From: Halorutilales archaeon Cl-col2-1
GTDB lineage: Archaea; Halobacteriota; Halobacteria; Halobacteriales; Afararchaeaceae
Assembly: GCA_041891055.1 (NCBI GenBank)
Contig: CP169074.1
Coordinates: forward strand, 1,056,001 to 1,120,000
Direction: 5' to 3'
Length of the DNA: 64,000 nt
Positions 24,328 through 26,134 of this stretch are shown here, one piece after another. Each line of letters begins with the position of its first letter. Positions within the stretch are counted from its first letter, which is position 1. A program made the position numbers and the translations under genes. Under the pieces are notes generated by a model. That model was not told the DNA's origin and searched no databases. It saw only the letters and a program-made list of their open reading frames with translations.

Positions 24328-24560
24328 CGGGAGGCGGGCGTACATACGTGAACTACCCCGACCTACTGCGCTCGGCTTACGCGCTCGTCTCAAACTCTAC
24401 GAGTTTGATGGCTCGTGAATCTAAGATTCACGAACGCTTCGTTGAGGTCGGAGCTTCGATGTCTTCTCGTCCACTTAGCACCGTGCCAGAGGTGGAGTCG
24501 TTGAAGCACCGTTCGGGCGTGTTCACGGACACCCCGAGACTGGATAGAGGTCGTTCGATA
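24328..24560 (-). ncRNA. Predicted TnpB omega/reRNA: scaffold over the tnpB 3' end and right end, plus flank-derived guide
   Basis: Known TnpB architecture; hairpins in the tnpB tail and right end. The guide would start GUAUGUACGCCCGCCUCCCG after ...UUCAC. The 5' boundary is approximate. Confidence 0.6.
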
Positions 24561-25561
24561 GACTTACCCAGTCCTCTTTTGGCGATGTTCGTCGCACCGT
24601 TCTTATCCGCATTATCTTCTAAGCCACACTCACTACATCGGAAACATCCTTGTCCTTCGCGTGCCGTTTCTTGGTTGCCACACCGACTACACGTTTGCGA
24701 GGTCATATACTCGTCAACTTCTACGACGGTGATACCCTCGAATTTAGCCTTGTACTCTATGAACTGCTTTAGCGTGTAGTGAGGCATCGAACTAAGCCGT
24801 CGGTTCATCTCACTACCCTTGTCGCCGTCGTCTATCCCTTCGAGGTCACCGATGACAATGAAGGCGTTCCGTTCCTTTGCTTCCTCTACGATGTTACGGC
24901 TTATCTTATGTAGTCGATCTTCGATTACCCTACGCTCCTTATCCTTCACTTTCTGTAACGTGTCGTACGCGCCCTTCTCTTGGAGTGTGGTACGAAGATC
25001 GTGGTAATGACGACGTTTCCGACGTACTTCTTCACCGTAAAAAGTAGTATTGCGGGAAGGCAACGCCACCGACGTTGCCACCCACCGAACGCCGAAGTCT
25101 ACACCTATCACGCCGTCGTAACTCTCACGCACTTCAACCTCTTGTCTTATGGTCAGGTGAGCATAATACTCACCGTCATCCCTTACGATTTTACTGTCCT
25201 TTACTTCCGCTTCGTCGGGTATTTCTTCGTGTGGTTTGATAGGTACGTTGATACCGCCGTAAACCGTTGCGACGGGTACTTTCAGCCACCAATTCGCTAC
25301 TTCGTTGTCGTCACGTCGTAGGTCAACGTCGAAGGTATCGTTACGGATGAACCACGGATACTCGTGGTCATCCTTCACCTTCTCTTTCTCTACGTAAGCG
25401 TCGGCGCATTGTACTGTAGCCGAGTATAAGTCTATGTCGTCGTCACCCTTTACGTACCGCTGAAAAGCCGTGTACTCACGTTCGAGTGCGTCACGCTTCT
25501 TGTTCGTGAGTTCATCGGTTAGTATCTTACCGACGACGGTCTTCTCAGCGGTCTGTTTCAT
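24428..25561 (-). CDS. tnpB: TnpB RNA-guided endonuclease, 377 aa, rearranged RuvC-II
   Basis: GVDFG (RuvC-I), IVIGDL, VDEYMTSQTCSRC..CSEC zinc finger, NADKNGATNIA (RuvC-III); SD GGGGTGA precedes ATG 25561. Confidence 0.93.
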   Translation of the reverse strand: MKQTAEKTVVGKILTDELTNKKRDALEREYTAFQRYVKGDDDIDLYSATVQCADAYVEKEKVKDDHEYPWFIRNDTFDVDLRRDDNEVANWWLKVPVATVYGGINVPIKPHEEIPDEAEVKDSKIVRDDGEYYAHLTIRQEVEVRESYDGVIGVDFGVRWVATSVALPSRNTTFYGEEVRRKRRHYHDLRTTLQEKGAYDTLQKVKDKERRVIEDRLHKISRNIVEEAKERNAFIVIGDLEGIDDGDKGSEMNRRLSSMPHYTLKQFIEYKAKFEGITVVEVDEYMTSQTCSRCGNQETAREGQGCFRCSECGLEDNADKNGATNIAKRGLGKSIERPLSSLGVSVNTPERCFNDSTSGTVLSGREDIEAPTSTKRS

Positions 25562-25660
25562 ATGCTTCACCCCTGAAGTATAGGACGGGTGTTGTAGCAC
25601 CCGTTCTACATCATTCTCAGAGAACTAACCCCTGAGTCCGTAGTGTCCTGCACTTCTTAC
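25562..25660 (-). promoter_or_regulatory. Structured tnpB 5' leader: three-way junction with kink-turn and alternative SD-sequestering hairpin
   Basis: Base pairing traced by hand (see findings); TATA-like ATTTATGA about 25 nt upstream. Confidence 0.55.
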
Positions 25661-25688
25661 CCTATATTAGGGTCTATATTATCATAAA

Positions 25689-25720
25689 TGTTACGCCATA
25701 GGCGTAATATAGGCGTAACA
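25689..25720. promoter_or_regulatory. Candidate operator between the divergent tnpB and accessory-gene promoters
   Basis: TGTTACGCC...GGCGTAACA perfect 9-bp inverted repeat; ATAGGCGTAA x2 with 11-bp period. Confidence 0.55.
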
Positions 25721-25752
25721 AAATATAAGTAAAACCATACGTTATAACACAC

Positions 25753-25905
25753 ATGGTAAAAGTTGAAGTAGAAAACCCAGACCTACACGCGGAACGGAAG
25801 GTAGACGACAGAGGGAGAGTATATATCGGTAAAGACTTTTCAGGTAAGAAAGTTCGTGTCATACTTGAATCAGTTGAAGAGGTAGACGAACCGGAGGATG
25901 AATAA
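25753..25905 (+). CDS. 50-aa AbrB-like / DUF2080-like transposon-associated DNA-binding protein (below the ORF-track cutoff)
   Basis: MVKVEVENPDLHAERKVDDRGRVYIGKDFSGKKVRVILESVEEVDEPEDE*; KVD.RGR..I swapped-hairpin signature; TATA-like AATATAA upstream. Confidence 0.75.
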   Translation: MVKVEVENPDLHAERKVDDRGRVYIGKDFSGKKVRVILESVEEVDEPEDE

Positions 25906-25937
25906 GTGACGGGGTGTATCACCATCCTACTGCGTAT

Positions 25938-26058
25938 GCGAATCTTCGATTCGCTTGTGCTGGAAAACTCTACGAGTTTTCTGCATCACAGAAATCTCTG
26001 ATTTCTGAAGACTCGCAAACCGTAGATTTGCGAACGTTACTCATCCGCTAAAACGGAT
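25938..26058. repeat. Periodic array of short palindromes inside the IS left-end hairpin
   Basis: Hairpins at 25938-25954, 25963-25981, 25989-26007, 26013-26033 and 26043-26058. Confidence 0.8.
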
Positions 26059-26134
26059 TGCGTTACTCCTTGAGGGTGGAGACTTACCCCTGTTAAGTTA
26101 AATTCAAGAGCCTGGAGTCCTTATATGACGCAAG

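Follow-up and report, generated by a model that had tools for sequence, protein, structure and literature searches.

A widespread structured RNA leader of haloarchaeal mobile elements, found upstream of tnpB in an IS200/IS605-family element, and its candidate role as a translational switch

The tnpB leader and its family

The DNA analysed, hereafter the window, is a 64,000-nucleotide stretch of the genome of Halorutilales archaeon Cl-col2-1 (contig CP169074.1, positions 1,056,001 to 1,120,000) that contains an insertion sequence (IS) of the IS200/IS605 family on its minus strand (24349..26098). The element encodes TnpB (377 aa; 24428..25561, minus strand, with the ATG at 25561-25559), which matched the Pfam family Cas12f1-like_TNB at 5.6e-23 and, more weakly, OrfB_IS605. 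Upstream of the gene lie a structured leader of about 100 nt, a divergent promoter/operator region (25661..25752, minus strand), and a divergent 50-aa open reading frame (ORF; 25753..25905, plus strand). An earlier note, made from the sequence alone, had read the leader as a kink-turn RNA that may gate TnpB translation, and the leader sequence and tnpB ATG were as quoted there. Comparative sequence evidence indicates that the leader is a real structured RNA and a member of a conserved, widespread family, for which a role as a translational switch is the favored explanation. The link of the leader to TnpB is a local accident of the window copy.

The minus-strand RNA of 25556-25660 was folded with RNAfold and compared with 200 shuffles. 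Its minimum free energy (MFE) was -34.8 kcal/mol, whereas the shuffles averaged -25.0 (z -3.06), with 2 of the 200 reaching the native value. Both the MFE and the centroid structures were the three-way junction that had been drawn by hand (25575..25656, minus strand), and the drawing likewise matched the MFE fold of 25562-25660. Helix P1 pairs 25656-25645 with 25586-25575, P2 occupies 25643-25606, and P3 pairs 25602-25598 with 25591-25587. Folded as DNA, the same stretch gave separate small hairpins (z -2.9) without P1 or the junction. Such single-sequence shuffle statistics are modest and the strong evidence is comparative. An extended-P3 alternative (UAGAACGGGUG/CACCCGUCCUA) pairs at 10 of 11 positions in the window; by inspection it can also be drawn in member L093 and in the family consensus, and it is indistinguishable from the junction geometry. 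The 3′ strand of P2 in the window copy, and in that copy only, reads AUG-AUG-UAG (25613-25605, minus strand), a two-codon mini-ORF. No evidence was found for a second stand-alone RNA of the element, and Rfam 15 had no match to the leader at E<=10 when the window region was scanned, nor to the motif at E<=1 in 20 member loci.

A leader copy with 69% identity (blastn) was identified in Halorutilus salinus, and on its own it folded into the same junction (z -3.3), with the outer part of P2 and P3 kept by compensatory changes. A covariance model built from the window and Halorutilus copies (R1) was run on 151 Halobacteriales genomes and recovered a second Halorutilus copy plus four weak matches, all ending at an ATG. 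Opposite one of the weak matches is a gene for a clear homologue of the window's small divergent protein, evidence that does not depend on the model. A second model (R2) was rebuilt from six sequences of four genomes and run on the same 151 genomes, the four training genomes being included in its counts; its E-values are rough, since the calibration was shortened. Matches were obtained in 35 of the 151 genomes at E<=0.05 and in 23 at E<=0.001. The 49 match places include two elsewhere in the window genome, which are diverged members. Halorutilus salinus F3-133 carries the two strongest copies, and copies of the core type occur in Haladaptatus pallidirubidus, Natronoglomus mannanivorans, and Natrinema altunense AJ2. 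Outside the order, one of 132 sampled genomes of the phylum gave a match, weak and poor-looking.

Further copies were sought among viruses. One member was present on a 49-kb IMG/VR viral contig, and the genome of Halorubrum virus BJ1, reached through a DNA match in the regulator region, gave a weak model match (14.9 bits, E 0.0045 in 6.3 kb) in the expected place, between ORF6 (a winged helix-turn-helix [wHTH] protein) and ORF7. Searches of a phage collection with a downstream protein and a wHTH regulator (tblastn) and with a member sequence (blastn) returned nothing relevant. Exact-pattern scans of public genomes and viral contigs found few members, as the family is too diverse for them, and one match in Agromyces and several bacterial matches look like chance. 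The literature, searched as full text without supplements such as haloarchaeal tables of transcription start sites (TSS), held no description of the motif and the family is apparently undescribed so far.

The consensus begins with GUAG and GAAGCGCGG (the P1 5′ strand), followed by a few junction bases and a P2 of very variable length, from a few base pairs to ~38 nt. It continues with CCGGUG, a six-base loop, and CACCGG (P3), then an A and CCGCGCUUC (the P1 3′ strand), and ends with UG, a short purine-rich loop, CAGAAGC, one base, and AUG. The start codon closes the model in most members, being ATG in 25 of 31. Conservation is strongest within the helices; the P2-P3 and P3-P1 junction strands are 1-2 nt long, the P1-P2 strand is 3-6 nt long with varied sequence, and the P3 loop is variable.

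In an alignment of 31 members, 93.6% of the cells at paired positions were paired compared to 70.6% in column shuffles and 28-45% with the partners slid, both-side changes were present in 20 of 23 pairs (118 cells), and 0 of 500 shuffles reached any of these measures. As the model structure guided this alignment and its sequences are related, the effect is overstated to an uncertain degree. All nine P1 pairs and all four basal P2 pairs covaried, and P3 was nearly invariant in sequence. The folding of the Halorutilus copy into the same junction is independent of the fitted alignment, and the types of pair are varied. Among 575 cells, 38 were G.U and 16 were A.C, an excess that favors RNA on this strand.

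The earlier note took conservation of the kink-turn or P1 among homologues as a check on its reading; P1 was conserved, and the kink-turn was not. P2 of the window carries the pattern (C-stem CUCAG/CUGAG, bulge AAU, tandem G.A/A.G, U.G, and GUAG/CUAC), as a sequence pattern only. Read by eye, the kink-turn consensus was present in one of the seven members with a long P2 (the window, L093, L099, L095, L156, L158, and L159). L156, from the same genome as the window, has G.A followed by G.G, both Halorutilus copies have plain bulges, and the three other long-P2 members have plain bulges or other internal loops in its place. Most family members have only a short P2 hairpin, without the distal part of the helix. 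Judged from these alignments, the kink-turn is a local peculiarity of the window copy and no defining part of the family. The proposed kissing of the P2 and P3 loops was likewise not conserved, as the longest run averaged 2.2 for a member's own loops and 2.3 for mismatched loops.

The competing hairpin before the start codon

The P1 3′ strand has a second potential partner in the bases preceding the start codon. In folds restricted to the tails, i.e., the P1 3′ strand with the bases up to the start codon, 29 of 31 members formed a hairpin of at least 4 bp using at least three bases of the P1 3′ strand. The hairpin end lay close to the AUG in most rows, from 3 nt upstream of it to a few nt inside. 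Its loop usually holds purines resembling a Shine-Dalgarno (SD) sequence (GGAGG, GGUGA, or AGGA, by eye). In the window, the hairpin is CUUCA-GGGG-UGAAG (25565..25578, minus strand; CUUCA 25578-25574, UGAAG 25569-25565), which draws on the final four bases of the P1 3′ strand and has the SD GGGGUGA (25573-25567) within it. The hairpin over the SD claimed in the earlier note is thus present, and it appears in the fold once the P1 5′ strand is blocked. Under that block, P2, P3, and the inner P1 pairs persist in the best fold, and the pre-AUG hairpin is added.

The pre-AUG arm tracks the strand that it would pair with. The last five bases of the P1 strand form 15 sequence classes; with its own strand the hairpin had a mean energy of -9.1 kcal/mol versus -4.8 kcal/mol with a strand swapped in from another class, and the own strand gave the better hairpin in 28 of 31 members, or in 13 of 15 when one representative per class was counted. 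The 31 tails were also aligned with MAFFT in a structure-naive manner and examined against 500 shuffles: 88.3% of the cells were paired compared to 74.2% in shuffles and 33-46% with slid partners, and 5 of 7 pairs had both-side changes. That last count was equaled by 25 of 500 shuffles and the other measures by 0 of 500. Because three segments covary, namely the P1 5′ strand, the shared strand, and the pre-AUG arm, the leader carries the signature of a switch, and the idea of two mutually exclusive folds, one of them enclosing the SD, is strengthened by covariation of both pairings across homologues.

Genomic settings and the host element

Most copies of the leader lie between a divergent gene for a small wHTH or AbrB-like regulator and small early ORFs, on provirus- or plasmid-like islands. 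Besides the window, 28 of 30 aligned member loci have a divergent ORF of at least 44 codons no more than 260 bases upstream. A Pfam scan of the 29 divergent proteins (these 28 and that of the window) gave 12 weak wHTH or HTH-type matches, one match to MraZ/MazE (AbrB fold), and 12 proteins without a match, several of the latter having a C-terminal ...LYELVDDPRE in common, by eye. Downstream are short ORFs, often with a Zn finger, and then hypothetical proteins, DNA methylases, integrases, a SWIM protein, or a helicase. The window aside, a Y1 transposase and TnpB follow the leader in the two Halorutilus loci only. From this gene content, the setting of the family is the switch region of provirus- and plasmid-like elements, from which a few IS605 copies appear to have acquired the leader. 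As side observations, a CRISPR array of 16 repeats (L144 2030-3036; Rfam CRISPR-DR24) starts ~450 bases from one family member, and a sub-threshold partial tRNA match (L130 1060-1122) lies just beyond the divergent regulator gene of another, which would fit an element integrated at a tRNA gene.

The view of the leader as a feature of TnpB genes was not upheld. Full-length TnpB homologues with 68-74% identity share the N-terminal start of the window protein, and among the seven closest, from other haloarchaea, five have tnpA immediately before tnpB with overlapping stop and start codons. A sixth, a tnpB-only copy from Haloarcula, has an unrelated upstream region. Model R1 detected no leader at six of the seven loci, Halorutilus being the one with a copy, and IS605 contexts numbered three among the loci examined. 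The window genome (2.06 Mb) has 31 TnpB-like matches, the nearest paralogue being 38% identical; two of the 31 contain internal stops.

The Halorutilus salinus locus has tnpA before tnpB in addition to the leader, and its operon runs from the leader through a 54-codon Zn-ribbon ORF and tnpA to tnpB, with a small divergent ORF opposite the leader. The window arrangement is that of Halorutilus without the Zn-ribbon ORF and tnpA, the leader being joined to tnpB at the ATG, and we infer that it arose by deletion of these two genes. The Zn-ribbon ORF (54 aa, CxxC...H..H type) is conserved as the first gene before tnpA (L093 1604-1768 and L099 1604-1768), and one copy of the Halorutilus operon has an extra 69-aa ORF. 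The Halorutilus TnpB has an in-frame N-terminal insertion relative to the window protein (L034 2441-2520). The DNA of the insertion is a pair of perfect hairpins, CAGAAATC-GGA-GATTTCTG and GCTGAGC-TTG-GCTCAGC, of which the former is similar to a hairpin in the left end (LE) of the window element.

The divergent 50-aa ORF of the window is a candidate small DNA-binding regulator, SpoVT/AbrB-like by motif, that begins with M-x-K-V-E-V and carries D-x-x-G-R-V-Y-L-G. It had no Pfam match, a PDB profile search gave nothing significant, and its match to the NCBIfam "DUF2080 family transposase-associated protein" was weak (15.9 bits versus a cut-off of 22). Homologues with 47-53% identity occur in two genera, divergent from the Halorutilus leader of L099 (1282-1422), from the leader of L096, and from a second tnpB of the window genome (L025 2754-2894), as well as in L101; the positional counterpart in L093 is the protein that matches MraZ/MazE. 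The ~50-aa gene thus recurs within IS605-type elements, divergent from tnpB or a tnpA-tnpB operon, and its product is probably the element's own repressor. Seven more distant homologues had no adjoining leader.

The spacer between tnpB and the divergent ORF measures ~190 bases and contains palindromes and AT-rich boxes, including the palindrome TTACGCC-TAT-GGCGTAA (25707-25691) and a TATA-like TTTAT (25688-25684). Counted from the first P1 base, 32 distinct members have an AT-rich block, typically ..GTATAAGTG or ..CTTTAAGTG, at -37 to -28, with an AT fraction of 0.75-0.91 at -33 to -28, and operator-like palindromes lie upstream of this block. Given the TATA-to-start distance usual in archaea, the position of the block would put the first transcribed base 5-8 bases ahead of P1 and the putative TSS of the window at ~25661-25664. 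The start near 25660 predicted in the earlier note agrees with this TATA-like block at a fixed distance.

A sister cassette in the window genome (G000:C1 ~1,844,800-1,845,135; L025), also present in the same-genus genome G001 (G001:C15; L101), pairs a related small divergent ORF with a different type of tnpB, the type found in the second Halorutilus element. Its spacer is 96 bases long and has palindromes, a TATA-like box ~25 nt before the ATG, and no leader; judged from this spacing, its tnpB mRNA looks leaderless.

The boundaries of the window element were read against the G001 genome, in which both flanks are contiguous at an empty site; the window therefore carries an insertion. The 1750-bp tnpB-only derivative has a G+C content of 0.41-0.50, lower than the ~0.60 of its flanks and the genome. 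Its left junction reads ...GAATTTA | ACTTAAC..., with insertion after ...AATTTA, and its right junction ...GTAGTTCA | CGTATG..., the element terminating in ...GTTCA. The junctions show no target duplication, and none is expected for IS200/IS605. The LE (25906..26098, minus strand; ~190 bases) is a run of about five short perfect hairpins that recurs at four other places in the window genome (84-92% identity) and at several places in G001. Two of these four copies are close to TnpB matches, and the two copies adjoin quite different TnpB paralogues (29% and 37% identical), which suggests that one TnpA specificity may serve several tnpB lineages from a common LE. The right end (24349..24457, minus strand) overlaps the 3′ end of tnpB and is repeated in G001 at 83-90% identity.

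Two further identities were considered for the leader and rejected. The ends of IS200/IS605 elements bear hairpins recognized by TnpA, and the empty site and end repeats place the true left end at 26098, so that 25906-26098, not the leader, is the transposon-end structure. With its position ~245 bases within the element and a single DNA copy in the window genome (BLAST), the leader is not a TnpA-recognized end; the small divergent ORF is likewise internal. The omega RNA of TnpB is encoded at the tnpB 3′ end, in the IS right end. The leader lies on the 5′ side of the gene, and the right-end repeat would by position, and by analogy with IS605 biology, be the expected omega-RNA region.

Candidate switch mechanism, rival explanations, and significance

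A bistable leader acting as a translational switch is the explanation that we consider probable, with a good deal of room for others. The 100-nt stretch would be the 5′ leader of the tnpB mRNA, with transcription starting a few bases upstream of P1. Pairing of the 5′ end with the distal strand would define state A, in which P1 closes the junction, formed with a P2 of variable length and a P3 with a nearly invariant GGUG/CACC stem, and leaves the SD-like bases and AUG single-stranded. In state B, 4-7 bases at the outer end of the P1 3′ strand would pair instead with the bases just before the AUG, producing a hairpin that abuts the start codon, with the SD-like purines located in its loop and its 3′ arm. 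By computation, the two states lie within a few kcal/mol of each other. Control would be exerted on translation initiation of the first ORF of the operon, presumably with A as the on and B as the off state, and the switch could be triggered by the state of the 5′ end or by a factor that stabilizes either the junction or the hairpin. Ancestrally, the cassette would have stood at the head of an early operon, with a repressor-type gene divergent from it; the Halorutilus-type IS605 would carry this cassette before its Zn-ribbon ORF, tnpA, and tnpB, and in the window the cassette would be joined to tnpB at the ATG, as though both genes in between had been lost by deletion.

Several points, in addition to the overstated covariation, weigh against this explanation. 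The energy of state B minus that of state A has a median of +2.9 kcal/mol across members and is +3.8 kcal/mol in the window, i.e., state A is on average more stable and state B may need a stabilizer. The window is itself one of the three exceptions in which a swapped strand did better than the member's own, and its hairpin is weaker than typical (-4.5 versus the family mean of -9.1 kcal/mol), from which the switch may be degraded in this copy. Most haloarchaeal mRNAs are reported to be independent of an SD (PMC8241225), and burial of the SD may for that reason matter less than occlusion of the AUG. The leader appears dispensable for TnpB expression, given that the sister cassette of the same genome runs a related tnpB without it, and the heterogeneous downstream genes of the family point to no ligand. 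Finally, we infer from sequence the transcription of the leader, its TSS, action at the level of RNA rather than DNA, the direction of the switch, and the effect on translation.

The same structures might be read by a protein, with the pre-AUG hairpin or the GGUG/CACC stem of P3 as the operator for a translational repressor or activator from the host or the element, the kink-turn adding L7Ae binding in the window, no small-molecule ligand, and the P1 competition only setting operator accessibility. We regard this as unlikely overall, but the foremost rival: stem sequences are conserved (GCUUC in 15 of 31 members; the P3 pairs GC/GC/UA/GC in 25-31 of 31), the downstream genes lack a common metabolic theme, and the window has its kink-turn-like motif by inspection. 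However, that consensus is confined to one of seven long-P2 members, and with regulators of two or more unrelated folds (wHTH and AbrB-like) and first ORFs that vary between members, no element-encoded partner is common to the family. A metabolite- or ion-sensing riboswitch, in which occupancy of a junction aptamer would stabilize P1, turn translation on, and let the element read host physiology, is improbable. The covarying helices round a tight junction and an expression platform using the P1 strand speak for it, and both a covariation-supported structure (20 of 23 pairs, on the model-fitted alignment) and a platform pairing that excludes part of the aptamer were found. Against it, the junction and loops are variable in both sequence and length, P2 varies in length too, no gene association indicates a ligand, and no Rfam family matches.

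It is still less probable that the leader is a passive 5′ structure that protects the mRNA from 5′-3′ decay or insulates the start site, with the second hairpin constitutive. The position of P1, at a putative 5-8 nt from the 5′ end, and the status of state A as the MFE fold in most members would suit such a role, which would nevertheless leave unexplained why the pre-AUG arm tracks the P1 3′ strand over 15 classes and why the two pairings have bases in common in 29 of 31 members. Least credible of all is an element acting as DNA, either as operators of the divergent regulator or as a single-strand structure for IS605 transposition. TnpA does recognize hairpins at IS200/IS605 ends, P3 and the pre-AUG hairpin are short palindromes, and the DNA fold has a z of -2.9; yet the real IS end is at 25906-26098, most members lie outside IS elements, the P1 arms are 60-80 nt apart, and the DNA fold forms neither P1 nor the junction. 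The ratio of G.U to A.C cells (38 to 16) is also contrary to it, and clear operator-like palindromes occur instead upstream of the TATA block.

In architecture, the proposed translational switch resembles translational riboswitches, such as the three-way-junction purine or TPP classes, which have an expression platform anchored on P1. In both, a multi-stem junction has a 3′ strand that can re-pair with the ribosome-binding region, and both alternatives covary; the leader differs in its poorly conserved junction and loop bases, the mobile-element genes downstream, and the lack of an Rfam riboswitch match. The nearest functional analogue within the transposon superfamily is tnpA of IS200 in Salmonella, the 5′ UTR (untranslated region) of which forms an SD-containing stem-loop that blocks 30S binding and gives 20-fold repression (PMC5435999). 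That structure is a single constitutive stem-loop in a bacterium, working with an antisense RNA and Hfq, whereas the window leader is archaeal, combines a three-way junction with a helix that competes with it, precedes tnpB rather than tnpA, and has relatives in non-IS mobile elements. No sequence relation to the IS200 tnpA UTR was detected, Rfam having nothing at the leader. The lysogeny switch of SNJ2 is described as alike in gene layout and in having a 5′ UTR: its int operon is reported to have a divergent wHTH repressor (the phiH1-repressor-like Orf4) and a mapped 5′ UTR of 114-132 nt, from two start sites 18 nt apart, with a palindrome, mutation of which left the plate reporter read-out unchanged (PMC10123103). 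Two loci with a one-mismatch copy of the SNJ2 operator gave no leader match.

A more far-reaching version of the switch, which we hold as a doubtful but consequential idea, is an orphan sensor RNA. Its junction would sense the host through a metabolite, an ion, or an RNA or protein of the host that reports stress or growth state, and by binding this signal would time translation of the first early gene in proviruses and plasmids. An IS605 lineage would have captured the leader together with the divergent repressor to gate TnpA and TnpB, and in the window TnpB alone. If true, the RNA would count as a natural translational switch of archaea, and TnpB would have its first described conditional control.

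To our knowledge, natural cis-regulatory RNAs of archaea are few, and none has been reported from haloarchaeal viruses, plasmids, or transposons. The family is common, occurring in roughly one in six sampled genomes at the strict threshold, its simple architecture is testable by mutation, and the motif could enter databases as a new RNA family. Its position at the junction of repressor and early operon offers a handle on the timing of mobile-element expression and on the initiation of leadered mRNAs in haloarchaea. For the biology of TnpB, an IS605 lineage bears a borrowed cassette composed of a small divergent regulator and a candidate switching leader, and deletion derivatives that differ in whether tnpB keeps the leader provide a natural comparison inside one genome.

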